DNA of 64,000 nt from a virus: IMG/VR virus record IMGVR_UViG_3300036985_002246, positions 135,476-199,475 of that record. One strand, given 5' to 3'. Numbering within the stretch: the first letter of the stretch is position 1; each line of letters begins with the position of its first letter. Shown here piece after piece: positions 6,113-45,700 of this stretch. A model generated the notes under the pieces. The model was not told where the DNA came from and made no database searches. It saw only the letters and a list, made by a program, of their open reading frames with translations. A program made the translations under genes and the position numbers.

Positions 6113-6793
6113 ATGCCGTTCATCTGCAAGCGCCGTAGTGACATCCAGAATGGGATCCTCCAGGTCACTGACCTCTGGCCCAACGCCAGCCAGCGGAACC
6201 AGTCGATCGACCCGCAGCCCCAGGGTCCCCGCTACGTCAGCGCCCCGGTGACCAACACGGTCGTCCTGAGCAGCACGGGCGCGACCCAGCGGTACCTCGC
6301 GACGGCCCAGTCGGGCCTCTCGGCGTACCTCGTCGCCAACGTCGATGTGGCTGGCCCCGCGCTCACGCCCGCCCAGGCGGACGTGGCCTCGGCAGCCCTG
6401 ATCGCTGCCATGCAGGCAGGCGCGGTCCTCAACCTCGCGGCGATCAACGTGATCCTCAACGCGGCTGCGGCAGGTGCAACCCTCACGGGTGGTACCTCGA
6501 CCGGTGCGGTCATGGACGTGCTCCGGATCCTCTCGGGCGCGACCTACACAGTCCCGGCTGGCACGGTCGTTCAGGTCGTCGTCTCGACGTTCAACCCCCA
6601 GGCGACCCCTGCGGTGTGGAACGCGAACAACTTCGACTTCAACGCCTACCACGACATTCTCGTGAGCGACTCGTCGTTCTACATCTCGCTCGCTCAGGGC
6701 CAGATCAACGGCTTCTCGTCGGCTTCGTTCATGTACCTCGGGACGGCGGGCGCGGCGCTCGTCGTGTACGACAACACGGGTGCAGTCCTCTGA
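6113..6793 (+). CDS. Virion protein paralog 1 (MPFICKRRSDIQ...)
   Basis: GGAG SD at 6101, ATG 6113; strong similarity along its length to 6862..7911. Confidence 0.8.
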   Translation: MPFICKRRSDIQNGILQVTDLWPNASQRNQSIDPQPQGPRYVSAPVTNTVVLSSTGATQRYLATAQSGLSAYLVANVDVAGPALTPAQADVASAALIAAMQAGAVLNLAAINVILNAAAAGATLTGGTSTGAVMDVLRILSGATYTVPAGTVVQVVVSTFNPQATPAVWNANNFDFNAYHDILVSDSSFYISLAQGQINGFSSASFMYLGTAGAALVVYDNTGAVL

Positions 6794-6798
6794 GTCCT

Positions 6799-6823
6799 GG
6801 AGGGACCTGATTCTCAGGTCCCT
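6799..6823 (+). terminator. Hairpin AGGGACCTGA/TCAGGTCCCT between the tandem paralogs
   Basis: 10-bp perfect stem just after the stop at 6793. Confidence 0.5.
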
Positions 6824-6861
6824 TGCAGGTCTTGGTATCCTGCAACGCAAAGGGAAGTGGG

Positions 6862-7911
6862 ATGCCTTTTATCTGCCTCCGGCGCTCGGACATTCAGGAC
6901 GCGGTTCTTCAGATCACTGACCTCTGGCCCAACGCTTCGCAGCGGAACCAGAGCATTGATCCGCAGCCGCAGGGTCCACGCTACGTGGACGGGCCGAAGA
7001 CCTCTTCGGTGATCCTGAGCAGCACAGGTGCAACGCAGAGGTACCTCGCGCAAGCGCAGGTTGGCCTCGCCGCGTACCTGATCGCGAACGTGGAGGCCGC
7101 CAATCTGGCGGCCCTCACGCCCGCTCAGGCCGACACGATCGCTGCCTCCCTGATCGCCACAATGCGGGCGGGTGGGACGCTCAATCTCGCGGCGATCGAC
7201 GCGGCCCTCTCCACGACTGCCGGTGTGGCTGCGACCGCCACCCTGACGTTCGGTGGTGCCCCGGTCAACGGCGAGACCGTCACGATCAACGGCAAGGTCT
7301 ACACCTTCCGAGCGGTGATCAACGGGGCCTCTGTCAACGGTGACGTGCTGAACGACGCTCTGGCGGCCAACGCCATTGCGAACCTCGTCGCTGCGATCAA
7401 TCTCGGTGCGGGTTCCGGCGTCAAGTACGCCGCCGCCATGACGCTCCACCCGACGGTGTCCGCAGCCCCTGGGCTTCTTCCTGAGATCCTGGACGCGACG
7501 GCCAAGTTCCTGGGCGCAGCAGGCAACCTGCTCACGAACGCGACGAACGTCACGCTCGGCGTCTGGGCACCTGTCGGGTTCTTCGGTTCGGGCCTGGACG
7601 CCTCCCTGACCGGCGGTGCCTCGACCGGGACGGTCCTCGACGTGCTTCGGATCCTCGCTGGTGCGACCTACACGGTGCCCGCAGGGACCGTCATTCAGGT
7701 GCCCGTCTCGACGTTCAATCCTCAGCCGACCCCTGCGGCGTGGAACAGCGCGAACTTCTCGGACTTCAAGGACGTTCTGGTCTCGGACTCGTCGTTCTAC
7801 ACCAGCCTCGCGCAGGGTCAGATCAGCGGCTTCCTGTCGCCCCAGTTCAGCTACCGGGGCGTCACGAGCCCGGCGCTCACTGTGTACGACAACGCTGGCG
7901 CAGTTCTCTGA
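6862..7911 (+). CDS. Virion protein paralog 2 (MPFICLRRSDIQ...) with a ~123-aa inserted domain
   Basis: Aligns to 6113..6793 apart from an insertion at about 7225-7600. Confidence 0.85.
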   Translation: MPFICLRRSDIQDAVLQITDLWPNASQRNQSIDPQPQGPRYVDGPKTSSVILSSTGATQRYLAQAQVGLAAYLIANVEAANLAALTPAQADTIAASLIATMRAGGTLNLAAIDAALSTTAGVAATATLTFGGAPVNGETVTINGKVYTFRAVINGASVNGDVLNDALAANAIANLVAAINLGAGSGVKYAAAMTLHPTVSAAPGLLPEILDATAKFLGAAGNLLTNATNVTLGVWAPVGFFGSGLDASLTGGASTGTVLDVLRILAGATYTVPAGTVIQVPVSTFNPQPTPAAWNSANFSDFKDVLVSDSSFYTSLAQGQISGFLSPQFSYRGVTSPALTVYDNAGAVL

Positions 7912-7932
7912 CCTGAGCCCATGAGGTCCTCC

Positions 7933-7978
7933 CCCCGCCGCTTCGGCAGCGGGGTCGAAGCCGCCGAAAGGCGGCTTC
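7933..7978 (+). terminator. Tandem hairpins with UUCG and GAAA tetraloops
   Basis: CCCCGCCGC-TTCG-GCAGCGGGG then GAAGCCGCC-GAAA-GGCGGCTTC, followed by TGCTTT. Confidence 0.6.
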
Positions 7979-8035
7979 TGCTTTGGCCCTCCACGGCGGT
8001 AGAGTCCAACGGCTCACCCAGGGAAGGCCGAAGCA

Positions 8036-8266
8036 TTGGACGACGCTCATTACCACACAAGCGATCTGTACTACGCAGCGTTCCTGCGTGTGGCAGGCGT
8101 CAAGTTCATTGAAACGACCCGTGACGGCACCCGGACTATCTTCGTCTTCGAGAACGCTGAGGGCATTCGAGACCTGAAGCGCGAGTACTTCAATCGAACG
8201 GCCAAGGTAGGCGCACTCGACTACGCCGACCAGGTTCGCAGCATGAAGGCCATGATCCACCTGTAG
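8036..8266 (+). CDS. Small protein resembling DUF5659 (possible small DNA-binding fold)
   Basis: YHTSDLYYAAFL...IFVFE pattern; TTG start after GGGAAGG. Confidence 0.6.
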   Translation: MDDAHYHTSDLYYAAFLRVAGVKFIETTRDGTRTIFVFENAEGIRDLKREYFNRTAKVGALDYADQVRSMKAMIHL

Positions 8267-8305
8267 CGGGCCGCCTAGCTCCGCTATAGGCCGCTTCGGA
8301 TAGAG

Positions 8306-8674
8306 ATGGCTGTAGACGCTTACATCAACGAGCCGTTCATCTTCCAGACCCTCTTCGTGGATCCGGAAGGTGCGCCCGTTCTCGTCCTCAGCCCGAATAT
8401 CACAATCTTCCGCATGGACCCGCTGACCGGGGACGAGATCCCCATGGTGGTCGCAGGTCCCATGTCCCCTGTCTTCCCCCCGGAGCCAGGCCGGTTCGTC
8501 TTCCCGTATGTGATCCCGGCCACACTGCTCGACGGGGACACCCTCTACGCTGAGACACGGGCCACAGACCCGGTGACCCTCTACGTCACTATCTCGAACG
8601 AGACCCTCAACGTCAAGTCACGAGCCAGCAGCCCAACCGCCTGCGCTGGCCTCAACGCTAGGTTCGTGAAGTGA
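8306..8674 (+). CDS. Hypothetical Ig-like virion protein
   Basis: Beta-rich 122 aa, structural context. Confidence 0.65.
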   Translation: MAVDAYINEPFIFQTLFVDPEGAPVLVLSPNITIFRMDPLTGDEIPMVVAGPMSPVFPPEPGRFVFPYVIPATLLDGDTLYAETRATDPVTLYVTISNETLNVKSRASSPTACAGLNARFVK

Positions 8675-8728
8675 GCCAGGCGTCCGGACAGGACGTGACC
8701 GGCAGACTCCCGCCTCCGGGGGTCCGTC

Positions 8729-9106
8729 ATGGTTGAGTTCAACAAGATCATCACGATCCCCACCGGGGGCGGAAACCCCGCTGCCCCAGGTCCAGGGGAC
8801 TCTGTCGTCCTGAACATTGCCTCCCTCACGGTCGCGGGGCGGTACATTATCCGGGACTTCCAGCAGCCCCTGACAGGGCCGCTGAACGGCTTCAACACGG
8901 TCTTCACGACCGCGACCGCCTTCATTGCCTCAGGCCCCTCGAAGGAGTCGTTCTACCTGAACGGCGTGCTCCTTCTCCAAGGGGTCGGGAACGACTACAC
9001 GGTGTCAGAGTCCGGTGGGGTGGGCACTGGGTTCAACACCCTCACAATGGCCTTCGCCCCCAAGTCAGTGGACTGGCTGACGATCGACTACTGCCCGGCC
9101 CCGTAA
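8729..9106 (+). CDS. Virion protein with a phage Ig-like surface domain
   Basis: PLTGPLNGFNTVFT...FYLNG...NDYTV...APKSVDWLTIDY pattern common in phage surface proteins. Confidence 0.7.
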   Translation: MVEFNKIITIPTGGGNPAAPGPGDSVVLNIASLTVAGRYIIRDFQQPLTGPLNGFNTVFTTATAFIASGPSKESFYLNGVLLLQGVGNDYTVSESGGVGTGFNTLTMAFAPKSVDWLTIDYCPAP

Positions 9107-9171
9107 GCCCTGCCTCGACTGGCGGTGTTTCACCTATGCTGACGCCGGGATAACCCACCAGGAGTGTAGAC

Positions 9172-11121
9172 ATGGCCCGCACGTTCATTCAGCAAGAGAC
9201 GCAGATCCGCAACACCCCAGCGGCGGAGTACGCGGACAATATTGCGCCCACGCTGGCCAACTACCAGACGAACCCGACGAACCTCCAGCAAGACCTGAAC
9301 AACATTCGGTCTCAGGTTCACAACCTGCTGGAGACGATCTCGGTCGGCAACTGGTACGACCCCCTCAACACCCCCAGCACGTTCGAGTTCGGGGCGCAGC
9401 GTGGCGTCAACGACCTGAACACCGACCTGCACGACCTGGAGCGCAAGCGCGTCCTCGTCACGGTCTCCAGCCTGATCGACGTGGTGGTCCCGGCCAGCGT
9501 GCAGGCGACCAACACGTTCACCTCGACGGGTGCCTTCAGCACCACCGAGACGATCACGATCGGCGGCCAGGTCTACACGTTCGTCAGCCCCTTCGTGGAC
9601 GTGGCGGGCAACATTGACGCCTCGGGCACGACCGCCCAGACGCACCAGAACCTTCGCCGGGCGATCAACGGCAACGGCGTCGCGGGTGTCAACTACGGCA
9701 CGGGCACTCCGGTCAACACCTCCGTCACGGCGACCGACGGAGCCACCTCGAACGTCTTCACGGCGATCCTGGGCGGCACGGCGGGCAACCTGATCGCGAC
9801 CACGACGACGTGCGCGAACGCCACGGTTCCTGCGACGCTCACGGGCGGCACGGGTGACATCAGCATCCTGACGCTCGGCCAGCTTCCCTCGAACACGACC
9901 CAGGCCGTCGGCGCAGTCACCACGCTCGGCACGGTTGCCGCGTTCAACGCGACGTTCGGCTCAATCTCGCTCGCAGAGGTCGCAGGCTCCACGGCGATCT
10001 CGCCGAAGAACCTCTGTGAGATCGTGGACGGCTCGACACGCGACCCGATCCTCTCGTCAGGCCGCACGATCTACGCCCTGTTCCAGGTCGAGACGGTGAC
10101 CGACGGGATCACCATGACGGGCACCACGCCCAACCGAGCCCAGCTTTCCTACGTCCGCCTCACCTCCACTGGCGACGACCTGGAAATGGTCCCGGCAAGT
10201 GACATTGCGGGCAAGACGATCAACTACTCCTCGGTCGAGCGCAAGGGCCTCGACTCGCTGAGCGAGCAGGACTTCCTGCGCGGGGCGATCATTGACGTTC
10301 CCGCCGGAACCACGGTCACCCGTCAGATCGGCTACGACAATCAGGGCACGACTCCGGTCACCGTCCTGACCAACTCCCTCCTCGACCTGGGGACGGCCAG
10401 CGTGGACTGGGAGATCCGCGACCTCGCCTCGGTCATGCTGTTCAAGGTGCTCGAAGGCAGCACGGGCGGCACGAGCGAGGTGCAGGTCGGCGCAGCGACT
10501 GACCTCTTCAAGTCGAACGCCGTCCTCAACGAGTTCAACACGGGCGCGGCCTTCGACAACGCCGCAGCGGGCACCACGATCAACGTGGGCGTCACGGCGA
10601 ACCAGATCGACGCGGGCGGTGCCCTCACCGTCACCTCGGGCGGCGCTGCCGACCTGAACCTCGTGGGTGCCCTGGAACTCAACCTCACGGACAGCTACCG
10701 TGCGGGCTCGACCTGGAGCCTTGCAGCCGGTGTCGCGCTCTCCAGTGCCTCGGCTGAGTGGTCACTCTTCGAGACGAACTTCGGTGAGGTCAGCCTCCTC
10801 AACGCGATCAACCAAGCCTACGCCTCGGCGGCTGGCCCGACTCGCGGCACGAAGACCTACTCGAACGTGACGGTCACCTCGGTGGCGGGCACGGACATGA
10901 GCCTCGCCACGGCGACGCTCGACGCGGCGCTCCCGGACATGAGCCAGGGCACCTTTACCGACCACGACGTGTACCTGAACGGCAACCTGCTTCGTGGTGA
11001 GGCGTCGTATCCCGGAGCGAACGACTACGGCCCCGGTACAGTCCTCAACCCGGCACGGCTGAAGTTCGAGTTCATCACCAAGGTTGGTGACGTGATCTGC
11101 GTCGTGCCGTGGAACCCGTGA
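9172..11121 (+). CDS. Large Thr/Gly/Ala-rich virion surface protein (fibre/decoration-like)
   Basis: AGGAG SD; contains the shared ETITIGGQVYTF module and a C-terminal VYLNG Ig-like domain. Confidence 0.75.
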   Translation: MARTFIQQETQIRNTPAAEYADNIAPTLANYQTNPTNLQQDLNNIRSQVHNLLETISVGNWYDPLNTPSTFEFGAQRGVNDLNTDLHDLERKRVLVTVSSLIDVVVPASVQATNTFTSTGAFSTTETITIGGQVYTFVSPFVDVAGNIDASGTTAQTHQNLRRAINGNGVAGVNYGTGTPVNTSVTATDGATSNVFTAILGGTAGNLIATTTTCANATVPATLTGGTGDISILTLGQLPSNTTQAVGAVTTLGTVAAFNATFGSISLAEVAGSTAISPKNLCEIVDGSTRDPILSSGRTIYALFQVETVTDGITMTGTTPNRAQLSYVRLTSTGDDLEMVPASDIAGKTINYSSVERKGLDSLSEQDFLRGAIIDVPAGTTVTRQIGYDNQGTTPVTVLTNSLLDLGTASVDWEIRDLASVMLFKVLEGSTGGTSEVQVGAATDLFKSNAVLNEFNTGAAFDNAAAGTTINVGVTANQIDAGGALTVTSGGAADLNLVGALELNLTDSYRAGSTWSLAAGVALSSASAEWSLFETNFGEVSLLNAINQAYASAAGPTRGTKTYSNVTVTSVAGTDMSLATATLDAALPDMSQGTFTDHDVYLNGNLLRGEASYPGANDYGPGTVLNPARLKFEFITKVGDVICVVPWNP

Positions 11122-11135
11122 GGAGTCACTGAACC

Positions 11136-11705
11136 ATGAGCCATGAGAGAGTCGAACTGCGCGCTTCCGGAATGCACGACGTAGGGGTCCGTATGGACGA
11201 CCTGCTGGAGGGTGCCCGGAAGGAGGTCCTTCGCTGTGACGGAGCCGTGTCTGGGCTCCAGCAATGTGCGAAGGCAGTCGGCGAACTCACGCCTCATGTG
11301 GACAGGGACGTGGACGAGGGAAAGTACGACCTGGAGACGGCAAAGCAGATCAAGCTCTACTTGAGCCGGGCTATCCAGGTCGTACAGAACCTCGGCATGA
11401 ACGCCAGCAACCAGCGAATGCTCTCGGCTGGCCAAGTGCAAATGGCTGAGGTGGCGGTCTCCGTCACGAAGAAGATGTACGACGGCGAAATGCAGAAGTC
11501 GGCTGCGATTGCAGCCGCTGAAGCGTCTCCTGTCAGTGCGGACGGTCGCGGGCGTGTGGTGGGAATGCACCCGTCAGCCACGATCAAGGAGCAGCGCCTG
11601 GCAGAGGAGGCCGCTCCGGCTGTCGTCCCTCAGGTGGCCCAAGGGACAGCTACAGCCCCGGCCAGGAAGAAGCCGGGGCCAAAGCCGAAGAACACCAGTG
11701 TCTAA
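11136..11705 (+). CDS. Hypothetical coiled-coil protein with basic tail
   Basis: AGGAG SD; heptad-like helices. Confidence 0.7.
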   Translation: MSHERVELRASGMHDVGVRMDDLLEGARKEVLRCDGAVSGLQQCAKAVGELTPHVDRDVDEGKYDLETAKQIKLYLSRAIQVVQNLGMNASNQRMLSAGQVQMAEVAVSVTKKMYDGEMQKSAAIAAAEASPVSADGRGRVVGMHPSATIKEQRLAEEAAPAVVPQVAQGTATAPARKKPGPKPKNTSV

Positions 11706-12483
11706 GACCCCCGACAGGCACCCAGGAATCCTCGTCGAGACTGAGGAGATCCTGCTGGGCGGGGATGTCTCCGGCGACCCCACTGACCTGGGCGGAATGC
11801 GCTATGTCAGTGGTGCCTTCCGGTTCATGGACGCCATTGGGGTTTTCGATCCGAGAGGCACTGGTTCGGGTGACGTTGTCGGTCCGGCGTCCGCGACAGA
11901 CAACGCTATCGCCCGCTACGATCTGACCACCGGCAAGCTGATCCAGAACAGTTCCGCCACTGTTGACGACAACGGGTACATTGACAACGCACAGGGTCGG
12001 TTCAACGGCGTCCGCTACTACACTAGCTCGGCCACCGACCCGTCGTCACCCACCCCAGCCGACGGGGACATTTACTGGAACACCGCACTCGAAAAGGAAA
12101 TGCGGTACGACGGCACGCGCTCAAAGTGGCTCAGCGTGGAGTCGGTGACGTTTCTGTTCAACAGCCCGCAGGCCGCGATTGGCAGCTACTTCAAGCTGGG
12201 CGACGTTACCATGACCTCGACCAGGGGCTACAATATGCCCCACAACGCGACGCTCGTCGCCATGGGCGTCACGCGCAGCAACACGGGTACTGCGACACTT
12301 GAGGCGGTGGCCGCTGGATCTTCGCTGGCGACTCAGGCGATCGGCACTGCGACGAAAGTGAAGACCAACACGGTGAACGCTGACATTGCCGTTGACGTGG
12401 TGCTCTCAGCAAAGAATGCAAGCGCGAGTGCCAACGAGATCCTGAACGGAATCGGGTACTTCGTCGTGAAGTGGAGAGTCTGA
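11698..12483 (+). CDS. Putative fibre/spike-associated protein
   Basis: GTG 11698 overlaps the upstream stop; GDVVGPASATDNAIARYD is a common tail-fibre motif. Confidence 0.65.
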   Translation: MSKTPDRHPGILVETEEILLGGDVSGDPTDLGGMRYVSGAFRFMDAIGVFDPRGTGSGDVVGPASATDNAIARYDLTTGKLIQNSSATVDDNGYIDNAQGRFNGVRYYTSSATDPSSPTPADGDIYWNTALEKEMRYDGTRSKWLSVESVTFLFNSPQAAIGSYFKLGDVTMTSTRGYNMPHNATLVAMGVTRSNTGTATLEAVAAGSSLATQAIGTATKVKTNTVNADIAVDVVLSAKNASASANEILNGIGYFVVKWRV

Positions 12484-12484
12484 C

Positions 12485-15400
12485 GTGGTCACGATCATTG
12501 CGAAGAACACGACCGCTGCGGACCTCCCGATCGACAACCTGTCGGTGGTGGACGCTGTTATCCCGGCGTTCGGAACGGTGACGCTGACGGACTCCAACTT
12601 CGTCTATCAGATCCAGGCCGACCCGCAGCTTCGGGACTACGTCACCTCGGGCGACATAGTGATCAGCGACGGAACGTCCGACCTGTCCCTCACAGACGGT
12701 CTGAACTACCTGTCAACCGTCGCGATTGCGAACTCTTCGGCGAGCGTTGACACCTTCATAGCGGAGAACAGCCCCGCGCAGGTCGTCACGGTCGCGGTGA
12801 GCGGCGGGCAGCTTACGTCCGTAGCGGCAGCCATTGCGAGTATCACGGACGCGACGGTCACGAAGCCGTACATGGTGTCGGTGTACCCAGGCGAGTACAC
12901 CGAGCCGCCGTTCACAATGAAGCCCTACGTCTCGGTCGTCGGCGTGGACGGGTTCTACTCGGTCCATATCAAGACGAACAACGACTCGGCGCACTTCATT
13001 ACGGGCGAAGCGGGCTCCGAGCTTCTCAACGTCTCGCTCACGGGTCCAACCGGAGTCGGCTACGCGACCATTGACTACCAGACGGAGTCGCGGATCCCGT
13101 TCATGCTCGATCACGTTCTGATCCGTGGCGGCTACTACGGGGTCTGGTGCCACCCAGCCGCAGCACGGGGCGTCGTCCACGCCTTCTTCGTCACCGACTG
13201 GTACTCGGGCAACACGATCAATCAGCTTTTCCGCTCGACCGACTACGGCAATATCACCTGCATGAACTCGGCAAAAATGTCGGGTCCCGCAGGTAGCTGC
13301 GTGACCGGGTGGTATGGGTCAGGACCGCACGCCGAGTTCACCCTGGACCTGTGTGCCTTCCGCGACTCCAGTGGCACAGCCTTCTTTGCAGACAACGGTG
13401 CCTACTACCGCCTGACGGCCTGTGCGGTGTCAAAGGCGTCGAAGGCACTCCATATTGGGAGCACAGGCACGGCCTCTGAGTTCCAGGCGATCGGCTGCGT
13501 TATCAACGAGGCTGAGGTCACCACTCATATCCAGACCGACACCCCGAACTGCGTCGTTGAGTACCAGGGATCGGCATGGAGCAGCCGGTTCAATCTGGCG
13601 AGTGGGACGGATGCGTTCATCCTGGCCACGGACACCGACGCCTTGGCGGTGACTGTTGTTGGTGAGCTTCGGGTCGGCGACCTTGCCACGGCTGTTCCGG
13701 TGGGATCCTATCTCCGCAAGACCTCTTCGACAGCAAGCACCACGTTTACGACGCTCTCACGGGGCACCGGGCGCGTTCTGAACGTCGGTGCTGGAACCGG
13801 GTTTATCTCGAACGGGTCCAGTATCGTTGGGGTGACCTGGGGGGCAGCAACGCCTACCCTCACGGCGAACAGCAACCTCTGGGTCATTGTGGATTCAGCG
13901 GGTGTGGTTCAGGAAGTCCTCACGGAGCCGGACTATGAAGCCGTGGTTGTGCTGGCAATCGCGACCACCAGCGCCACCGACACTATCTTCCTTTCCAGGC
14001 ACTACGTCGCGGCGAGTCAGCACCTCCCGCACATGCACGAGTATTTCGAGACCGTGCTTGGGCCGCTGTCGGTGTCTGGCTGCACCACGGTCAAGCACGC
14101 TTCGCCGTCGCTCCAACTCGATGTGGATGGCGGCGTCTTTTACATTGCGGAGAATGAGTTCACGGCCAGTGCGAATGCTCCGATCACGTTCACCTACTGG
14201 TATCGCAACGGAAGCGGCGGGTGGAACTGGGTCACGTCGCAAACCTCGATCAACGTCACCCAGTACGACGACGGGTCCGGGACGCTCGCCACGCTAACGG
14301 GGACCAACTTTCGCCGCGATTCCGTCTATCTCATTTCCGGCACCTGGGGCACGGAGTACCATGTGGTACTCGGTCAGGAGCAGTTCGCGACCGCACTCCT
14401 CGCCGTTGTGAATCCGACCCCTCCGGAACAGCTTCGAGTGAACTCGCTGCGGGTGGCTGCGGTGGTTGTCCAGAAGGACGCGACAGACCTGACTTCGGTC
14501 ATTGACCAGCGCCCGATCCTCGGGCAACTCTCCACCGGAACGACAGCAGTCACGTCCCATGGTTCACTCTCTGGGCTCGGTGCGGACGACCACCCTCAGT
14601 ACCAGCTTGTCACGGGGAAGAACGCAGCGAACGGGTACGCGGGGCTGACTGCCGGGACGATGATTGCGACGGCTCAGCTTCCCTTCACAGCGACGCCTCC
14701 GGTCAACGTCACGAAGGCGGCGGCAGCCGTAGGGACTTCGACTGAGATTGCTCGACAGGACCACAAGCACGACGTGACGACGGCGGCGGCTGTTGCAGTT
14801 GGGACGGCGAACGCAGAGGGGTCAGCGACTTCACTTGCACGCTCTGACCACACGCACCAGGTCACGGGCTTCTCGATCGCAAACCTCACGATCGACGCGG
14901 AGGGCTACCCGAACCTGGGCGACGCCTCGACGACGACGCCAGCGACGCCAGCGACTGGGGTGACCCTCTTCTCGCGGTTCCGTGCTGGTCGCCACATGGC
15001 CTCCCAGGTCGGGCCGTCTGGCATTCCATACTCGTTTCAACCGGCGCTGTTCGCTAGCAAGATCACGCTCTGGACGGCGCAGGGCAACGGCACTTCGGTC
15101 AGCACGATCAACTTTGGCACGAGCAACACGGGCAACGCAACGGCTCGCAACGTCGCAACCACGAATTTCGCGACCTCACTCAGGCGACTGGCCTTCGTAT
15201 CAACCACAGGCTCCGGCAGTTCGTCGGGCACACGCCACAACCTGCTTCAGTTCTATCGTGGCGACGCTGCTGGGCGTGGCGGCTTCTTCTACGTGGCGCG
15301 CTTCGTGGTTGATACGATCTCGGCTGGAGCCCGGTGGTTCGTCGGCCTCTATGGCTCTGCTGCGGCGATCGGGAACGCGAACCCATCGTCACTTGCCAAC

Positions 15401-15736: not shown

Positions 15737-15747
15737 GAGCTAGATCA

Positions 15748-34004: not shown

Positions 34005-34016
34005 CCTGCTCCGAGC

Positions 34017-34430: not shown

Positions 34431-34435
34431 CTCCC

Positions 34436-34528
34436 ATGTCAGATCTGTCCGGGACGGAGGTCATATGGGTCTTGGCGCTGATTCTTTTCTGGATCGCCAT
34501 GATCGTTCGTGACGACTGGAAGCGGTAG
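34436..34528 (+). CDS. 30-aa single-TM peptide
   Basis: MSDLSGTEVIWVLALILFWIAMIVRDDWKR. Confidence 0.4.
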   Translation: MSDLSGTEVIWVLALILFWIAMIVRDDWKR

Positions 34529-34576
34529 GCTCTCTGGTAGAGTCCCGAGCCCAGGACCCTCGGGCAGAGGAAGAAC

Positions 34577-34888
34577 ATGACTGACAAGACGATCGAGACG
34601 GCAGAGGCCACCCCGACTGAGATCGCAAAGAAGCTCTCCCCTGAGGAGGTGACGGCGCTGACGCAAATGCACCGTCAGGCGCAGGAGACCGTTCAGCAGA
34701 TCGGGCAGAGCGAGGTCCGCAAGGCTCGCCTTCTCGCGAGCCTCTCGGAGGTCGAGGAGCGCGCTCAGGGGATCATGAACGCGGCGGCGGCTCGGCTCGG
34801 GATTGAGCCTGGGACGCCCTGGCAAATGGCACCGGACGGGACGGTCGTGATCCTACCCCGCCAGCAGCCGCCTGCTCAGACGCACTAG
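34577..34888 (+). CDS. Small coiled-coil protein
   Basis: GAGGA SD; downstream of a GGTAGAGT motif. Confidence 0.7.
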   Translation: MTDKTIETAEATPTEIAKKLSPEEVTALTQMHRQAQETVQQIGQSEVRKARLLASLSEVEERAQGIMNAAAARLGIEPGTPWQMAPDGTVVILPRQQPPAQTH

Positions 34889-34917
34889 GCACGCTATCTT
34901 CCCCAAGAGGGAAGCCA

Positions 34918-36291: not shown

Positions 36292-36339
36292 CAGGAACCG
36301 GAGAGAATCACAATAGGGGCTCTATCGCCGCCGCTAGGT

Positions 36340-37338
36340 GTGAACGTCTGCGGCGTGTGTTTTCTCCCCGTTGTCTCTCACAACGCCTACGCTCAGCACC
36401 TTCGTGGAAGGTTGGACGCCCGCCACCAGGAGGCTCTCGTCAGCTATGAGGCGTGGCTGGCAGTTCACCTCACGACGTACAGGTGCTCGAAGTGCAGGTG
36501 TTTGTACCGGCGGGAGCCTCTCACTCACAGGAGCGGGCCAGGTCTGTGTACCTCGTGCCGACACCTCAAGGAGACCCTGCCGACCAGAACCTACGAGTCC
36601 TTGGTGAATCGTAAGGACGAGGCCCCTGTCGGTTGGGATTCTCTGGTGGTGCAACAGGACGTGTGGACCCCAAACGAGGCTCTCTGCGAAGAGGTGCTCA
36701 GAGTCACCCAGGGCCAAGAGAGGGTCCGTGACGCCATGGCTAGGTTGGGCCTCAGCTTCAGGCTATTCAAGGCTGTGGGTGTTCATGTCCTTGGGGCAGA
36801 CGCCTACAAGGAATGGGCTTCAGCTAGAGAGTGGAGACGGTCGTCCAAGGTCGGGAAAGCCCATGCTGACCGTTACCGGGCGATGAGCCCTGACGAGAAG
36901 GCAGCCGTGCTCCAGAAGCGGTTCCCACGGGTGAGGTCGAAGATTGAGATCATGATGACCGACGTTCTCGTGGCACTTGGTGAGACTGACTTCGTCACGA
37001 ACCACTGGCAAGCTTTTGAGATCTTCGGTCGTGTTTCTCCGCGAGAGGCTGACATCAAGCTGACCCTCGGGGCCGACCGCAAGCTGGTTCTGCTGTGTGA
37101 CGGTGAGGCTTTCCACGGTCCAGGGTGCATTTTCGGCAACCCCGCCGACCGCATTCGCGACGACATGGCGACTACTCACGCCTACTTTGACGCCGGATAC
37201 TCCGTGGTGCGGTACTCAGAGACTGAGATCAAGTCAGGGGTGGCTGGTGGTCACTTGTCCATGATCCTGACGAGATTGAGAGCAGAGGGTGGGCGAATCT
37301 TCCGCCTATGGTATCCCGCACTTGAGGAATGGGTCTGA
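36340..37338 (+). CDS. Free-standing endonuclease, DUF559/Vsr-like C-terminus
   Basis: Zn-finger N-terminus; EADIKL...LLCDGEAFHG...VVRYSETEI; atypical codon usage. Confidence 0.75.
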   Translation: MNVCGVCFLPVVSHNAYAQHLRGRLDARHQEALVSYEAWLAVHLTTYRCSKCRCLYRREPLTHRSGPGLCTSCRHLKETLPTRTYESLVNRKDEAPVGWDSLVVQQDVWTPNEALCEEVLRVTQGQERVRDAMARLGLSFRLFKAVGVHVLGADAYKEWASAREWRRSSKVGKAHADRYRAMSPDEKAAVLQKRFPRVRSKIEIMMTDVLVALGETDFVTNHWQAFEIFGRVSPREADIKLTLGADRKLVLLCDGEAFHGPGCIFGNPADRIRDDMATTHAYFDAGYSVVRYSETEIKSGVAGGHLSMILTRLRAEGGRIFRLWYPALEEWV

Positions 37339-37354
37339 AGGAGGGCACCCCAGC

Positions 37355-38020
37355 ATGACCAAGAAGAGCACACCCTCCACTCCCCCACCGGCAGACTCGT
37401 CGATCGTGCCTGACCCCACAGACAGCCACCCGATCGTTCGGGTGAGCAAGTGGGTTGGTATCTTCGTCGGGATCGGCGGGGGCCTGGCCTTGCTGGTGAC
37501 GGGGATCTGGAAGGTCGGCGACCTCCTCAACGACCTGGAGCAGGTCCAGACCGACGTGGCTGCCCTCCGGTCCTCGGTGACTGAGGCTTCAGCGGAAGCC
37601 CGCCGTCGCAGCGACATTCAGGAGGAGATCCTCCTCAACCTACGCATTGCGGTGGCCTCGCTTCAGGCCAGGTCAGGCACGCCACGAGGCGGGAGCGCCC
37701 CGTCTTCCACACCCCCTGTCACTCGTCCGCGTGTGCCCGTAGCCCGTGTTCGGCCCCACCCAGTGGCAGATACCCCCCCGAGCCCTGAGGTGGCTGCGCT
37801 GGTGCTGAGCCTGCCACCGCTTCCTATGGCCCCACCCGACCCGCCTGTGGCCCCGCCTCAGCCGCTTGTCGCAGTGGCCCCACCCCACGTCGTGTCCCTG
37901 GCCGAGTTGCCCACGATTGTGAGGGAGGGGAGGAGCCTGGACGCCACCGCCTACGCCCGCGAGGTGGAGACGACTGACGTGGCGCTGGAGCGGGCGAACA
38001 TTCTCCTCGACGCACTATGA
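37355..38020 (+). CDS. Membrane-anchored coiled-coil protein with Pro-rich linker
   Basis: One TM helix, heptads, Pro-rich tail; GGAGG SD. Confidence 0.65.
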   Translation: MTKKSTPSTPPPADSSIVPDPTDSHPIVRVSKWVGIFVGIGGGLALLVTGIWKVGDLLNDLEQVQTDVAALRSSVTEASAEARRRSDIQEEILLNLRIAVASLQARSGTPRGGSAPSSTPPVTRPRVPVARVRPHPVADTPPSPEVAALVLSLPPLPMAPPDPPVAPPQPLVAVAPPHVVSLAELPTIVREGRSLDATAYAREVETTDVALERANILLDAL

Positions 38021-38673
38021 AGATCCAGAAGAGGCCACGACCGACTCAGAAGACCCCGCTCAGGAGCAGATACGTCGGCCCTCTGGAGCGTCAGGTTGGG
38101 GCAATCCTCGACAGGTCTGACCTTCAGTTCTTCGGGCGCTGCCTGATCAAGTACATTCGCGAGGAAGCCAAGAAGGACGCGGCCAAGACCGGCCAGGTGC
38201 CCACCTCGGACGAGTTCTACAAGTCGTTCTCGTACCAGGTGAAGGACAACACGATCGAGGTGTCCTCAAGCTGGCCCTGGATCGACCTGGTCGTCTTCGG
38301 CACCAACGGGCCGTACAAGATGACCTGGCTCACGCAGCAGGCTCACAAGGAGGGCGGCGGGAAGGACGCTGCCAAGCCCAACCCCAAGGAGGCCAAGGCA
38401 GCGCCCTTCAAGCCTCGTGGTACCTACAAGCCGCCCTCGATCCGACAGGTCGTCGAGAGGAAGAAGGCGGCCAGCGTTCTGAAGGTGCCGCTCCGCACTC
38501 GAACTGGGGAGATCGTCATTCGCACGGCCCCCCTCACGTTCGACAAGGCTTGGGTCCACCCAGGGATCGCCAAGCACAACTTTATCAACCGCGCCTTCGA
38601 GCGCGCTCGGAAGGATTGCGTCTCCCGGTTCATGGAGAAGAACATTGGGAAGATCCTGGACGGGGTACTCTGA
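38017..38673 (+). CDS. Putative neck/tail-completion protein (HK97 gp10-like)
   Basis: Helical N-terminus and HPGIAKHNFINRAFE C-terminal motif. Confidence 0.55.
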   Translation: MKIQKRPRPTQKTPLRSRYVGPLERQVGAILDRSDLQFFGRCLIKYIREEAKKDAAKTGQVPTSDEFYKSFSYQVKDNTIEVSSSWPWIDLVVFGTNGPYKMTWLTQQAHKEGGGKDAAKPNPKEAKAAPFKPRGTYKPPSIRQVVERKKAASVLKVPLRTRTGEIVIRTAPLTFDKAWVHPGIAKHNFINRAFERARKDCVSRFMEKNIGKILDGVL

Positions 38674-38674
38674 C

Positions 38675-39295
38675 GTGGGGGAGGTCGAGATCACCTGTAT
38701 TGGGGACACAGCCCATGTCCCCGACCTCGGCCTGAGAATGACCCGTGGGTCGAAGGTCCACACGAGCCTCTCCGCGATTGCCAAGTCGCGTGACCTCGAA
38801 GACGCCAAGAGCCGTGGGCTCGTCTCGGTGAGGATTCTGAGGGCACAGACGATCCGAAGGGACAGCCTACCCATGTCAGCACCCCCGGAGTCCTCCTCCG
38901 CGAACCAGAGAACGATCGCCAGGTCCGCTCACCAGCCCACCACTGAGGGGGGTGACAACCACTCGACAGACCTGCTGAGGGAACTCCTCTTCGAGATCCG
39001 TGGCCTTCGAGAAGACCTCCGGAAGCGCCAACCGGAACCTCAGACTGCGCAACTGGCGATAGCAATCGGGAACGCTGTCCGGGGTGCCTTGAGCGGCCTT
39101 CAGTTTGGGTCAGGCGGGGGAAGCACAGCCTCCTTCGCCTCGGAGCCAGAAGAGCGGTTCATTCCTCGTGGTATCGTCTCAGAGTCGGCGAAGGCTGACA
39201 TTGAGATCACCCACTCGGTGACTCCAAGTACCTCAGGTCTGGACGACGCGAGCGGGGCTCTTCGGAACGCCCGCCGCCAGACGAAAGAAAGATGA
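38675..39295 (+). CDS. Hypothetical protein
   Basis: GTG just after the upstream stop; ATGA overlap with the actin-like gene. Confidence 0.65.
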   Translation: MGEVEITCIGDTAHVPDLGLRMTRGSKVHTSLSAIAKSRDLEDAKSRGLVSVRILRAQTIRRDSLPMSAPPESSSANQRTIARSAHQPTTEGGDNHSTDLLRELLFEIRGLREDLRKRQPEPQTAQLAIAIGNAVRGALSGLQFGSGGGSTASFASEPEERFIPRGIVSESAKADIEITHSVTPSTSGLDDASGALRNARRQTKER

Positions 39296-40311
39296 CCGGA
39301 ACCATGAGCGGGAAATCCGAAACAGTCCGTGGTGTGGGCCTCGACGTAGGTACCATGAATTTCGTCTCCGCCCGGCGGACCTCGAAGGGCGTCGAGACTC
39401 GCCGAATGAGGGACGCATTCCTCGATCTCCCGCCTGAGTCGAAGAAAATGCTCAAGCTGTCGGGGGTCTCCTATGTGGACCGGGAGGACGAGATCCTGAT
39501 CCTCGGCGACGCAGCCCTCGACATGGCCAACGTCTTCGGTCGTGAGGCGCGGCGTCCGCTCTCGGGTGGTCTTGTCTCCTCCACGGAGGCGGACTCCCTG
39601 GAGGTGCTGGGGCTCCTCGTCCGGAACGTCCTCGGGCCGCCGGAGGAGCCAGGCGAGCACTGCTACTTCTCGGTCCCAGCGGCCCCGGTCGATCTGGTGG
39701 GCCGCGACGTGGTCTACCACCGTGGGATCTTCGACCGCATTGTCTCTGAGTGCGGGTACACGCCCCACTCGGGGAACGAGGCCATGGCGATCGTCTACGC
39801 CGAGACGGCGAAGGACGGCTTCTCGGGGATCGCCCTCTCGTTCGGCTCGGGCATGACCAACGTCGCGCTCTCCGTGAGCACGGTCGAGGGGTTGTCCTTC
39901 TCGGTCGGGCGGGGTGGGGACTGGATCGACGCAGGCGCGGCGAAGTCGGTCGGGTCCACGCAGGCGCGAATGTGCTCGGTCAAGGAGAAGGGGATCGACC
40001 TCAACAACCCGACCTCCAGGGAGCAGGAGGCGCTCGCCTTCTACTACAAGAACCTCGTCGAGTACGTCCTCGACCAGATCGCCCTTCAGTTCAAGGCCGT
40101 CGAAGGCCGGTTCTCGCTCCCGAAGCCGATCCCAATCGTCGTCTCCGGGGGCACCTCCCTGGCCGGTGGGTTCCTGGAGTTCTTCATCGGGGTCTTCGAG
40201 AAGAAGCGCAAGCGGTTCCCGATCCAGGTGAGTGAGATCCGAGCCGCTAGCGACCCGCTCAACTCGGTCGCTCACGGCCTCCTCGTTCAGGCTCTCCAAG
40301 AGTACGAGTGA
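39292..40311 (+). CDS. Actin-fold (ASKHA) ATPase, MreB/ParM/MamK-like
   Basis: Phosphate-1 GLDVGT, connect-1 NEAMA, phosphate-2 SFGSGMTN, adenosine VSGGTS, connect-2 DPLNSVAHG. Confidence 0.88.
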   Translation: MTGTMSGKSETVRGVGLDVGTMNFVSARRTSKGVETRRMRDAFLDLPPESKKMLKLSGVSYVDREDEILILGDAALDMANVFGREARRPLSGGLVSSTEADSLEVLGLLVRNVLGPPEEPGEHCYFSVPAAPVDLVGRDVVYHRGIFDRIVSECGYTPHSGNEAMAIVYAETAKDGFSGIALSFGSGMTNVALSVSTVEGLSFSVGRGGDWIDAGAAKSVGSTQARMCSVKEKGIDLNNPTSREQEALAFYYKNLVEYVLDQIALQFKAVEGRFSLPKPIPIVVSGGTSLAGGFLEFFIGVFEKKRKRFPIQVSEIRAASDPLNSVAHGLLVQALQEYE

Positions 40312-41003
40312 TGCCTGCGGGTGGCATTTACCTGATCAGACTTTCAGATACCCACTACTACGGTGGTAGGGCGTCCGATTTTCGCGTCAGGTGGGGGAAC
40401 CATCTCTCGGCCCTGAAGGCTGGGAGACACCCAAACCCGTTCATGCAAAACGTCTTCAGCAAGCACAGACTTTTCAATGCTTCGGTGCTGTTGGAGATTC
40501 AGGACGAGTCTGGGAGGCTCAGGGCAGAGCAGGAATGGCTTGACGCCAACTTTGGCAGAGCCGGTTGTCTCAATGTCAGCCCGTCTTCCGAGCGTGGCTC
40601 CAGCAAGGGTGTGAAGAGAGCCACCCCCGAAACCGGAAAGAGAATCTCTGCGTCCCTCAAGGGAAGGCCCTGCTCTCCTGAAACGCGAGAGAAGCTGAGG
40701 TCTGCTTCAAGGAAGCGGTGGGACACAACCACCGACTCGGAGGAAACGAGGGGGAAGAAGTCTCTCGCTGCTAGGGGACGCAAGCATACCGAGACCTCAA
40801 AGGTGAGAATGTCAGAGATTGCTCTGGGTAGGGGTGGTTTGGGGCCAAGACACCACTCGGTAGAGACACGTCAGAAGATGTCTGACAGCCAGAAGGCTCG
40901 GTTTGACAGTGCGGCCCGGCACAAGTCTTCAGAGGCGCAGAGGGCGAGGCGGGCTAGGGAGCGGGTCGCTCGTGAACAGGAGGCGACGTGTACTTCCATT
41001 TGA
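40308..41003 (+). CDS. GIY-YIG homing endonuclease with NUMOD3-like repeats
   Basis: GIYLI...YYGG...RWGNH; HTETSKVRMS, HSVETRQKMS repeats; atypical codon usage. Confidence 0.88.
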   Translation: MMPAGGIYLIRLSDTHYYGGRASDFRVRWGNHLSALKAGRHPNPFMQNVFSKHRLFNASVLLEIQDESGRLRAEQEWLDANFGRAGCLNVSPSSERGSSKGVKRATPETGKRISASLKGRPCSPETREKLRSASRKRWDTTTDSEETRGKKSLAARGRKHTETSKVRMSEIALGRGGLGPRHHSVETRQKMSDSQKARFDSAARHKSSEAQRARRARERVAREQEATCTSI

Positions 41004-42109
41004 CCGAAGCCACGCGCAGGCGTCTGATCAAGGAGATTAGGGCATATTGGTCCCTTCACCCACGCTATCAGGATCTGGTGGCGAATGTGCAGGGCAAGTA
41101 TTCCTTCGAGGAACGCCCTCAGTACGGGATCATTCTCAAGACCGGCTCGGCCACCAAGGTCCAGTTCTCGGCGGACAACTTCATGGGGACCGTGGCGAGC
41201 TATGTGGCTCTCGCGAGGATCCCTGGCTACGCCGGGCTGTCGGTCGAGTGGGTCCGAGAAGACGCCCTCGCAATCCAAGCGAACGGCGGGCGGTTCCCGT
41301 CGCCTGCGGGGGTCTACTACTGCGAAATGGCCACGGAGGACACGTTCTTCGTGGACCCGCTGCTCGACGTGAGAGACGAGCGGGTGCTCATGACGACGAA
41401 CTCGGAGGGCTCCCTTCAGGGGATCCCCTACGCCGGGAGCCTGCGGGTCTTTGAAATGCCCAGCGGGCGGCTCCTCACCCCTGGGGTGAACTACACGATC
41501 GGAGCGGACCAGACCACGATCTACCTGGCTGTGCCTCTGGCCAACGGTCAGGCGCTCTCGGCGGACTACCGGGTCGCTGGAGCGTCCACCGGGCCGTGGA
41601 AAATGGAGCCCCAGTCGGGCCTCAGCCATGTGATCCCCGGCGTCGTGCTGGTCTTCGGTCGGCGCTACCAGAAGGGCGACCGCTGGGCGGTGGTGGTGTC
41701 TCAGATCCGCGAGCCTGCGTACCTGGAGTACGGCGGCAAGTGGGAACTGAGTATCGACATTGACATTATCGCCCGTGACGTGACCTCCCAGGTCGAGATC
41801 GCCGACCAGACGGCCATGTTCCTCTGGGCGATCCTACGCCCGAACCTGATCAACGAGGGTATCGAGATCTCCGACGTGTCCATGGGCGGCGAGTCCGAAG
41901 AAGTCTACGACGAGAACGGCGACGACTACTTCTACAACTCGTCGATCTCCATGACCGTGGCGACCGACTGGTTCATGCACGTCCCAATCCTCCCCAGGAT
42001 CTTGTCCTACCAGGAGGACGTGAAGGGGCTGCCTCAGGACCTCACCCTGTCGCCGTTCAAGGACCCGTTCTTCTCAGGGAAGTTCGAGCACTTCGAGAAG
42101 ATTCTCTGA
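40988..42109 (+). CDS. Tail terminator / sheath-stabiliser-like protein with inserted Ig-like domain
   Basis: Position just before the sheath; WELSIDIDIIARD...GIEISDVSMGGESEE; internal TPGVNYTI domain. Confidence 0.55.
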   Translation: MYFHLTEATRRRLIKEIRAYWSLHPRYQDLVANVQGKYSFEERPQYGIILKTGSATKVQFSADNFMGTVASYVALARIPGYAGLSVEWVREDALAIQANGGRFPSPAGVYYCEMATEDTFFVDPLLDVRDERVLMTTNSEGSLQGIPYAGSLRVFEMPSGRLLTPGVNYTIGADQTTIYLAVPLANGQALSADYRVAGASTGPWKMEPQSGLSHVIPGVVLVFGRRYQKGDRWAVVVSQIREPAYLEYGGKWELSIDIDIIARDVTSQVEIADQTAMFLWAILRPNLINEGIEISDVSMGGESEEVYDENGDDYFYNSSISMTVATDWFMHVPILPRILSYQEDVKGLPQDLTLSPFKDPFFSGKFEHFEKIL

Positions 42110-42168
42110 TTGTGTGGCCCTTCGTGGCGGTGCTGTACCTATATCCGCCGCATTGAGGAGAGGCCACC

Positions 42169-42606
42169 ATTCCCGTCTTTCGCTACCAGTGCTCGTCCTG
42201 CGGATTGAACTTCTCTGCCCGCGTCGCTTCGGCGACGGCAAAGGCGAAGTGCGTCTGCGGGGCAGAAGCAGGGCAAGACCTCCCTCGGTCCTTCTCGGTG
42301 AGCACCAACGTCCCCACGCAGGGGCTGTCGGCTCCTGACACCGGGCTGTCCTCGCACGACTACGTCTATGACCGGGTCGTGGGTGAGGACTCCAGGACGA
42401 AGTGGGCGCAGATTGCGGCCCGCCAGAAGGACAAGGTTCGGGTGATCGAGGCTGAGGGTGTCACCGGCTTCGACCTCAGCCGGAAGCCAGACGGCACCTA
42501 CGGGGTCATGACCCCACAGCAACGAGCGGCCTCCGAGAGGTCACGGAAGTTTCACTTCAAAATGGACGCCCACGGCAAAGCCCTGAAGGCGCAGAAGGCC
42601 ACCTGA
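42169..42606 (+). CDS. FmdB-family zinc-ribbon protein, apparent ATT start
   Basis: (M)PVFRYQCSSCG...CVCG in frame with track ORF 42205; GAGGAG SD upstream of ATT 42169. Confidence 0.7.
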   Translation: MPVFRYQCSSCGLNFSARVASATAKAKCVCGAEAGQDLPRSFSVSTNVPTQGLSAPDTGLSSHDYVYDRVVGEDSRTKWAQIAARQKDKVRVIEAEGVTGFDLSRKPDGTYGVMTPQQRAASERSRKFHFKMDAHGKALKAQKAT

Positions 42607-42735
42607 ACCTGGTCACCTCCCGGTGCTTCAGCACCGTGGTCAATCACCGACTCACGCTATCCCCCGCGCTTTCCACTTCTCCTCCTTTACTCGGGAGGGG
42701 TTTGATTCACCCAGCAGTTCCAGGAGCGCGCTACC

Positions 42736-45700
42736 ATGCCGACACTTCTTCAGGGCGGATATGCACCGCCGGGCGTCTACACCCAGACCTTCTTCGGCGT
42801 CCCCCCGACCCCGACCCCGATTCCCGACCGCCTGCCTGTCTTCATTGGCACGGGTATCGAGATCCTCTCCCGCTCGAACCTCCCCGTCGTCCGTGGCTCC
42901 TCCAGCACGATCGACCAGCAGGTCGTGGACGAGGACGAGTCCGGTCGCGCCGTCGTGAACGTCTCGCCGAGTGGTGTCGTCACCCTCGGGGACTTCGACG
43001 GGTCGCTCACGAAGTTCCAGGTCCGCAATCTCCCGATCGTCTCGGGTGACGGAACGGGCACCCCGGCGGTGGACACGAGCGCCGTCTCGTGCCGGATCAA
43101 CGGCTTCCCCGTCGTCGTCCTCGGGCTCGACGCCGCGAAGGGCCTCGTCGAGATCGCGGTCGCCCCGGCTGCCACGGACATTGTCCGCTGCACCTACTAC
43201 TTCGACCGCTCGGACACCCTGACGACCGACAACGTGTCGGACCAGGTCACCCAGGACGCCGCCGTCCTCGACGGCCAGGCTGGGCAGAACTTCGCGTTCT
43301 CGGCTGGCGCGAACGACGTTTTCTCAATCTCGGTGGACGGCCTCGCGTTCGTGAACGTCACCATGCCCTCGTCGGCTCCCTCGGTGAGCGGCGCAGTGGT
43401 GGCAGCGACGATCAACGGCGCAGCCGGTATCGGCTCGCTCGTCGCCACGACCTACGTCAACAACCTCGGCCAGGTCTGCCTCCGCCTCTCGGCGGACAAG
43501 TCGATCGTGATCGGGACCGGGACCTCGAACACGACCCTCGGGTTCACGCCGAACACGGCGACCTCCCGCAATCGGATCTTCTACACGTTCCAGGGTCCGA
43601 TCGTGGACGGCACGGGCGGCGGTATCACGACCACGGACCCCTCGCGGATCGTCGTCCTCGTGGACGGTGTCCAGGTCATTCCGACGGCGGTCAACGGCTC
43701 GGCTCGGAGCTTCACGCTCCCGTTCGCTCCGGCCATGGGCTCCACGGTCACGGTCAGGTACTTCTTCAACACCTGGCAGGACACGTTCGACTACCTCGCC
43801 AACATTGGCGTCACCTCGATCTCTCGGGTCGCACTGACCCCGGACGGCTCGACGGCGGGCACGTTCATTCAGGGCGTCAGCTACGTCCTGAAGGACGACG
43901 TGATCGTGTGGGGAACGGCGGCCCTGATCTCGGCTGCCACTCACACGGAGGGCGGGGCGACGCTCGGCAACTCGCAGATCCAGGCCATGCTCGTGGACAA
44001 CCAGGTCTTCCTGGCCCCCTGCTCGCCGACGGTGAACAACACTGGGGTCGTCTCGGTCGAGAGCCGCACGGTGTTCCAGCTTCCGTACCAGCCCACGACG
44101 GGCAACGGTCGCGGCAACCCGCTCGGCTCGGCGCTCTACCAGACGGTGTCCAACGGACGGATCGACCTTCCGACGACCCGCCCCGACCTGATCACGGCGT
44201 ACTGGGGCTTCGGCGTTCAGGACGCGATCAACCGTGGCTCGGTCACGGTCCTCAAGGTGGACAGCACGACCTCGCAGATCACGCTCGGCACGAGCGTCCC
44301 TGAGGGTGCCTCGGTCTACGCGAGCTTCTACTACAACACGCTCGTGGACATGGCGAACATTGGCTCCAGCCACGCCTACACGCTGACGTGCGTGACGGCG
44401 GGTCCGGGCGGCCTCGGCACCTACTCGCTCACCAACGGCTCGGGAACCTCCCTCTTCGGAGTGAGCCTCACGGGCAAGGGCACCGACCTCACGACCGTCG
44501 AGATCGTGTTCCCGAGCGGCTCGGAGTTCTTCCCTGACGCACGGGTCGAGGGTGCTGTCCCGGTCGAGGAGACCGCCACGATCGAGTTCGCCACGTCGGA
44601 CGTGACACCGGCTCGGTTCACGAACCTCGGACCTGGCCCCTACTACACGATCGACAACGTCTCGGACCACCTCCGGGTGACCTTCGACGGTGTCGCGGCC
44701 AACACGGGCCTCGCTGCCGGTGTGGACCTCTCCTCGCCCACAGGTGGGACTCGCGCTGGCGCGTTCGCCCACCTCCTCGGTGAGGAGATCAAGTACACGG
44801 CGGCTTCGGGCGAGACGACCTACGACCTCACCTCGGGTGTGGACGACGCACTCAATCTCCTCGTGGACGGCGTGCCTCTGGCAGCGACGACCGGCACGGT
44901 CGCTGGTGCCACGGCAGCTACGTTCGTCTCGGCGATCAACGCAGCGGCGGTCGCGGTGGGCAACGAGCCCTACCTCAGCAGCGCGGGTGCCTTCACCGGG
45001 TACACGGTCGCTCTCAACGAGTACGACCAACTCACGCTCCACTACACCGGAGGCACGAGCGGTGCGTCCGGCAACCAGGTGATCACCCTCACCCCTGGTC
45101 TGTACGTCTCGGTCGGGGCGCTCGTCACCCAGATCAACACCCAACTCGCGACGGTCAACGCCACGGGCGGCCTCCTCGGCTCGGTCACGGCTTCGGCGCT
45201 CGCGTCGGGTCAGATCCGGTTCACGCTCACCCTCGGGAAGGCCAGTGACCTTCTGACCTTCGGCGGGATCCCGCTTGCGGCAGAGACGGTCACGATCGAC
45301 GGCGTGGTCTACACGTTCGTCGCGGTGCCTGCCCTGCCGGGCGACGTGTTGATCGGCCTCTCGGCAACGGCCTCGCTCCAGAACCTCGTCGCAGCGATCA
45401 CGCTCGGTGCGGGTGCAGGCACGCTCTACGGAACGGGCACGACGCTCCACCCGACGGTGACGGCGGCCATGGGTGTCGGCGCAACCATGCTGGCGACGGC
45501 AAAGCTCAGCGGGATCGCTGGGAACCTGATCGCAGTCGCCTCGGGCGTCACGCTCGGAGTGTGGGCCACCCCGACGCTCCTCGGCGGTGACGACGCGGGC
45601 TACCTGGAGTTCGTGACGAACGCGGCTCCGGCTCGGGACTTCGCAATCCTGGCGGGGATCGACACGGACGCGGCAACGAACGGCAATCAGACCAAGCTCT

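Follow-up and report, generated by a model that had tools for sequence, protein, structure and literature searches.

Immunoglobulin-like (Ig-like) accessory domains are known from phage structural proteins, for example Big_2 domains on major tail proteins and Hoc on T4 heads (Fraser et al. 2006, cited in PMC9230969). They are small and self-folding, sit on many classes of virion protein, are present or absent in close relatives, are exchanged horizontally and are dispensable for assembly, with weak adhesion as the proposed role, and the module described below resembles them. The sheaths of jumbo phages carry five or more additional domains (PMC9230969), for which weak binding to surface polymers and bracing of neighbours have both been proposed (Evseev et al. 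2022, PMC9230969). Here, a module of about 120 residues was studied in three proteins encoded in the final 64 kb of a virus contig of 199,475 bases and 63.7% G+C (IMG/VR record IMGVR_UViG_3300036985_002246); this stretch of 64,000 nucleotides (positions 135,476 to 199,475 of the record) is called the window. A first-pass annotation had described the module as a recently mobile, adhesin-like surface-display domain, copied by intragenomic recombination onto several parts of the virion. Taken broadly, the notion of a promiscuous display domain is supported by our results, but recent intragenomic shuttling in the window is not. The copies are probably old, inherited members of a large accessory-domain family, with turnover mainly by recombination of a segment of the tail sheath.

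The whole contig was scanned in six frames with a profile made from 331 instances of the module. Exactly three copies were found (E 1e-34 to 1e-39), with profile envelopes at window positions 7189-7617, 9472-9867 and 45229-45600, and the next-best match in the 199,475 bases reached only E 0.7. The proteins concerned, all on the plus strand, were A (P0001, 226 amino acids, 6113-6793), its neighbour B (P0002, 349 amino acids, 6862-7911), the 9172 protein, here called C (649 amino acids, 9172-11121), and a giant tail sheath (1768 amino acids, 42736-48042). Searches of Pfam, PHROGs and NCBIfam gave nothing above threshold for these four proteins, and all three module copies also stayed below the Pfam, PHROG and NCBIfam thresholds.

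A and B are tandem paralogs with about 72% identity end to end, apart from an insert of 129 residues in B, as the first-pass annotation had seen. Residues 1-116 of A matched 1-117 of B at 73% identity, and 122-226 of A matched 247-349 of B at 70%. The insert (B residues 118-246, window 7213-7599) is the module and has no counterpart in A, which is a module-less member of a gene family conserved in huge phages (227-233 amino acids in about 100 relatives). B orthologues of 345-348 amino acids, with 59-74% identity over the full length, carried the module at the same site in four relatives, and the genomes of these four also retain a separate A gene. A backbone tree from which the module columns had been left out placed the A genes of those genomes in one group and the B genes outside it, indicating that the A/B duplication is older than these phages; the pair is also kept in G003, a relative of 252 kb. 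A short direct repeat flanks the B module, with T-L-T-F-G-G on the left (7243-7260, ACC CTG ACG TTC GGT GGT) and S-L-T-G-G on the right (7603-7617, TCC CTG ACC GGC GGT), and protein A has a fused T-L-T-G-G at 6479-6493. The repeat may be a trace of insertion microhomology, or it may just reflect the terminal motifs of the family itself.

The more diverged copy proposed for C was present as well (9472-9867, or 9490-9858 with narrower limits). Residues about 108-208 of C matched the B module at 36% identity (E 7e-9) and the sheath module at 40% (E 4e-9). The module stood in the same place, residues about 89-243, in 114 of 120 relatives of C. The other six relatives, of about 530 amino acids, were without it; one relative (P0006) had about eight copies. 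The module-less forms were not distant ones only, and these included the most similar relative, P0389 (77% identity). The C family was absent from the records of the five relatives searched (G001, G003, G005, G006 and G007, the last a complete genome of 436 kb).

Judged from its sequence, the 1768-residue protein is a contractile tail sheath. Its last 400 residues, the C-terminal core, matched proteins annotated as tail sheaths in the records of 225 phages, and the best matches among cultured phages were Tunturiibacter phage Tunturi_5 (2e-43) and Bacillus phage G gp178 (1e-30), with Mycobacterium phage Myrna also matched. PF17482 was detected in 3 of 28 sheath homologues (best E 1.5e-6). PDB sequence searches with the sheath and with the sheath family profile gave no match, and BLAST for internal repeats within the sheath found none. 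The module (45229-45600, or 45241-45600; residues about 832-955) lies in a hypervariable stretch of the sheath, residues about 690-1000. The B module matched sheath residues 840-944 with 57% identity over 109 amino acids (E 5e-26), in agreement with the earlier claim that the same module is inside the sheath.

About 30 related sheaths had the module at the same site (residues about 817-965), and the borders of the insert were constant, with RFTL(T/A)L before the module and D(A/D)(S/A)GYLEF after it; in the window, the module stands between RFTLTLG and DDAGYLEF. The presence or absence of the module in related sheaths, a check proposed by the first-pass annotation, was then mapped on a sheath backbone tree of 120 sequences and 1563 columns from which the module region had been removed. 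Both states were found: 76 sheaths had no insert, 21 a clear module, 16 a divergent insert of module size and 7 larger unrelated inserts. The module state was patchy on this tree, and sisters differed. P0296, which has the module, and P0319, which is without it, were 100% identical over residues 1-660; between about 690 and 990 their identity dropped in steps to 50-80%, and beyond that it was again 95-100%. The pairs P0281/P0290 and P0365/P0362 showed the same profile. Such mosaic profiles indicate homologous recombination that replaces the whole variable segment, not clean insertion or excision. The window sheath itself was least conserved at residues 721-930 (70-80% identity to its nearest relative, 85-95% elsewhere).

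Other contents were also seen at this sheath site. At the equivalent of position about 45230, some relatives had larger inserts of about 250, 470 and 850 residues; relatives with variant site contents were P0284-P0286, P0288, P0290, P0364 and P0387, and a more distant group of sheaths of about 1780 amino acids carried a divergent domain of module size there. A second patch of low conservation was observed at window 46330-46510 (residues about 1199-1259, 69-73% identity as against 85-95% elsewhere), which may be another variable surface segment.

Beyond the window, a profile of the three copies was searched against 1.84 billion cluster representatives. The family had 4449 representatives at E≤1e-3, of which 2292 also passed E≤1e-10. 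It appears to be undescribed so far and without a Pfam model; part of it overlaps phrog_28344, a weak match to a function-less family. Tandem arrays were common, many proteins having 2-13 copies. In 80 viral contigs the architectures varied: the module stood at either end or in the middle of its host proteins, which had 140-1780 residues, and in some contigs two neighbouring genes both carried it. Five of ten host proteins tested from viral contigs matched phrog_290 ('minor tail protein') and one matched phrog_3287 ('virion structural protein'), and the 'major tail protein' of Stenotrophomonas phage Sonora had the module at residues 24-155 (E 5.8e-45). When cultured phages were searched by tblastn, the sheath and C modules matched siphophage tail proteins, and the B module gave no match. 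Among the matches in a viral structure library were one major capsid and one major tail protein (template modelling scores 0.82-0.83 and 0.65-0.69), which ranked below unnamed proteins from the phages PhiJL001 and RcTitan. In the ESM Atlas, leads for the module stayed below threshold (0.89, crAss auxiliary capsid protein), and A gave no lead. Outside phages, a bacterial FlgE hook protein (P0040, 1182 amino acids; Flg_bb_rod, FlgE_D2 and Flg_bbr_C all present) had six central copies of the module.

The family consensus terminates in LTGG, and LxGG was found at the boundary in 175 of 328 instances. The Gly-rich LTGG/LLGG motif noticed earlier next to the module was present; rather than a separate hinge, it is the motif with which the domains of this family end. 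Tyr30, Gly69 and Gly101, together with Thr24, Ile25, Thr31, Asn57, Leu58, Ala61, Ile62, Tyr72 and Ala97, were invariant or near-invariant. These are residue types usual in cores or turns, and none would seem catalytic from its identity.

Structure prediction, which the first-pass annotation had suggested as a check, gave a confident fold. The AlphaFold model from 39 domain sequences had nine strands and one helix of 12 residues (predicted local distance difference test 90, predicted template modelling score 0.85). Its best structural match was the cyanophage A-1(L) sheath (8kee_C, residues 88-191; Z 11.2, root-mean-square deviation 2.7 over 102 amino acids), and Foldseek matched the sheath outer domain with E 1.6e-4 and probability 1.0. 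The sheaths of Mu (9ki1, Z 8.9), phiTE (Z 8.8) and Milano (8foy, Z 8.3) were also matched, and T7-type nozzle proteins, flagellin outer domains, FliD and T4 gp11 followed with Z 5.5-9.0. According to the model, the module has over its whole length the fold of the outer domain of ordinary sheaths of 500 residues. The three-copy profile matched no chain at E<1 among PDB sequences, and identity in the structural alignments was 20-26%.

The module could then be compared with the known systems. Like the additional domains of the A-1(L), Mu and Milano sheaths, it has the fold of their residues about 88-215, away from the N- and C-terminal core. Unlike them, it is found beyond sheaths too, in three or more further gene families of the clade and in tail proteins of siphophages; sheaths that are nearly identical gain, lose and swap it, and its three-copy profile matched no solved sheath at E<1. 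Compared with Ig-like domains, it is made of mixed strands and a long helix instead of an all-beta sandwich, and it is often internal in a loop rather than terminal. The module gave no match at E≤10 to the Ig-like Pfam models (Big_2, I-set, FN3), and two of the top module-bearing proteins had a weak Big_2 match. The variable domains of flagellin, FlgE and FliD are similar in being inserts in the middle of the subunit of a helical-tube protein with conserved termini, and in fold (Z 5.5-7.2), although they belong to bacterial motility organelles and not to virions. A match to FliC PF12445 was seen for the B copy only, at E 0.005 and 17.5 bits, below the cut-off of 23.2.

A further host family was found outside the window. 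The relative G003 has three copies of the module, one each in B, the sheath and P0257, a protein of 331 residues. A module-less orthologue of P0257 is encoded in the present phage about 17 kb upstream of the window, as a protein of 208 amino acids (G000:C1:118160-118786; L094:1661-2287). Its residues 1-80 matched P0257 at 71% and its residues 85-208 matched residues 208-331 of P0257 at 61%, with the module in between. This protein had no Pfam or PHROG match. On these alignments, the 208-residue protein and P0257 are a fourth host family, distinct from A/B. The natural pair with and without the module that had been pointed out for A and B was thus found in three host families and in this fourth one, so that all four (A/B, C, sheath and 208-residue protein) have both forms.

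The age of the window copies was examined by pairwise protein and DNA comparison, synonymous divergence (dS) and trees. Identity between the B and sheath modules was 56-57% at the amino acid level, no higher than to domains of unrelated outside proteins, which reached 57% with the B module and 60-61% with the sheath module; this is the outcome that the first-pass annotation had named as refuting its reading. Each copy was nearer to copies in other phages: the B module to those of B orthologues (74-75%), the sheath module to that of an orthologous sheath (74%) and the C module to P0088, its nearest outside relative (61%). In a domain tree (IQ-TREE, 46 rows, 127 columns), the sheath copy grouped with orthologous sheath copies (support 100/94 and 98/95) and the B copy with the B orthologues, and the C copy grouped with P0088 (100/100), far from both. 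Nucleotide identity among the three copies was 55-64%. The B/sheath pair, at 64%, had a dS of about 0.8, similar to the dS of the A/B flanks (0.57-0.83). Recent copying within this genome, by recombination between structural genes, could be argued from the membership of both copies in one subfamily, from their third-position identity (0.55) and share of identical codons at identical residues (0.67), both above the codon-usage simulation, and from the 19-base word that they have in common (7440-7458 and 45441-45459, plus strand). For codons, the simulation gave about 0.43-0.44 and non-homologous controls 0.34-0.42. However, the pairs with C, which are certainly ancient (nonsynonymous divergence 0.63-0.65), reached 0.62 and 0.64, indicating that the codon excess is a property of conserved positions and no sign of recency; it is putatively due to stronger codon preference at conserved residues. 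The 19-base identity reported earlier is real, is the longest exact word in common, and had P = 0.02 under the simulation, yet it covers and encodes the most conserved motif of the family, TLHPTV. Since the codon excess occurs in anciently diverged copies, a brief stretch of exact DNA identity between old paralogous domains is poor evidence of recency in this genome. The recent-copy reading was rejected on the identity, tree and codon tests, and we regard it as extremely improbable. Neither 'recently mobile' nor 'copied by intragenomic recombination' could thus be upheld for the window copies; what stood of the earlier description is one autonomous domain in unrelated hosts, with its pairs of module-bearing and module-less forms. 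On the compared sequences, each window copy has long been resident in its host gene family, because orthologues in the B, C and sheath families carry the module at the same site.

Possible movement between loci was seen in G003. Its sheath module was 77% identical to its own B module and at most 67% identical to any other sheath module, and together with the P0257 module it fell within the B clade (96/96). This suggests copying between loci within the G003 lineage and raises an explanation in which gene conversion keeps the copies alike or overwrites them, the window pair having merely drifted. The module B_P0158, 83% identical to a sheath module, would fit, as would P0095, a protein of 312 amino acids on a metagenome contig of 4.2 kb that joins an N-terminus of the 208-residue family (70%) to a C-terminal half of the A/B family (73%) via a module 90% identical to that of G003 B. 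On the other side, approximately unbiased (AU) tests rejected neither the grouping of all sheath modules in one clade (p 0.069) nor a clade that follows the sheath backbone (p 0.087) and so allow vertical descent of the sheath modules; with these non-significant tests, transfer between loci is suggested and not proven. Moreover, dS between the G003 copies was above 1, P0158 and P0274 are short-branched in a polytomy, so that kinship does not follow from their high identity, P0095 could be either a recombinant via the shared module or an assembly artefact, and no such signal was present in the window B/sheath pair. Gene conversion as the general explanation therefore seems unlikely to us. A stronger form of it, a matched display cassette in which conversion keeps the same surface specificity on several virion parts and swaps change all of them, is quite doubtful; if it were true, G003, in which the three copies resemble each other more than their orthologues, would show the process under way. 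The opposite proposal is that of three wholly independent acquisitions from outside donors, without copying between host genes of the lineage. The C copy is clearly of another subfamily, and the outside proteins P0041, P0046 and P0032 share one unresolved group with the B and sheath copies. But the B, sheath and fourth-host copies of the clade clustered together among 366 domain instances, and the G003 copies form one supported clade, which makes this proposal very improbable. The results support the entry of the module into new host genes during the history of the clade.

We therefore prefer, as the likely explanation, old and inherited copies of a large accessory-domain family. In this explanation, self-folding domains of about 120 residues would be hung on the outside of virion parts, namely the sheath, the tail tube or 'major/minor tail' proteins, the capsid and others, and would occupy fixed sites across this clade of uncultured huge phages in at least four host families (sheath, the B paralog, C and the 208-residue protein). 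Each window copy would have entered its host gene long ago and then been passed down together with that gene. The copies in B and the sheath would be of one subfamily with an older common source, and the C copy, of another subfamily, would be a separate acquisition. The exposed middle of the sheath would be a recombination hot spot, where related phages swap segments via conserved flanks, the incoming segment having the module, lacking it or carrying other inserts. Occasional placement of a module copy into a new gene would be a second source of variation. Several points weigh against this explanation. The position on the virion surface is presumed, and homology implies it for the sheath alone. 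A, B and C are putative virion proteins by gene neighbourhood only, C had no annotation at all, and the A/B backbone model had no recognisable fold (no Foldseek match; best VIA-align Z 4.6). Some 125 columns underlie the domain tree, which has a polytomy as its backbone, the AU tests described above reject neither clade, and every pair of copies exceeds the codon-usage simulation in its share of identical codons. Many of the proteins compared come from metagenome assemblies, which may be chimeric.

A diversity-generating retroelement was also considered and rejected, as DNA identity was low and the common word at most 19 bases; reverse transcriptase was not searched for. Elsewhere in the window, positions 39292-40311 (plus strand) encode a protein of 339 amino acids with a strong full-length match to Volactin (PF25216, E 1.6e-71), an actin-like family in huge phage. 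The open reading frame of 166 amino acids after the sheath (48050-48550) had no Pfam or NCBIfam match.

As judged from the natural distribution of forms, the module is dispensable for its host proteins, because module-less forms occur in four families, some of them in sheaths that do not otherwise differ. Its evolution is faster than that of its hosts; it occurs on tube-like assemblies and is presumably displayed on the virion surface. By analogy with what is proposed for Ig-like phage domains, its role may be weak binding to host surface polymers, a tentative assignment to which we would give somewhat less than an even chance. Lateral contacts that stiffen the long tail are a putative role that is possible though less likely. 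Adhesion is slightly favoured because rapid divergence and cassette swapping are more in keeping with an outward-facing partner than with a fixed internal contact.

Accessory-domain shuffling among phage structural proteins is already well established, and the value of these results is descriptive rather than conceptual. They place a recombination hot spot in the exposed middle of giant sheaths. The four natural pairs with and without the module in one phage clade are ready controls for studying the function of decoration domains. Moreover, the results define an abundant phage domain family of thousands of clusters, without a Pfam model, whose fold is tied to the outer domain of ordinary sheaths.

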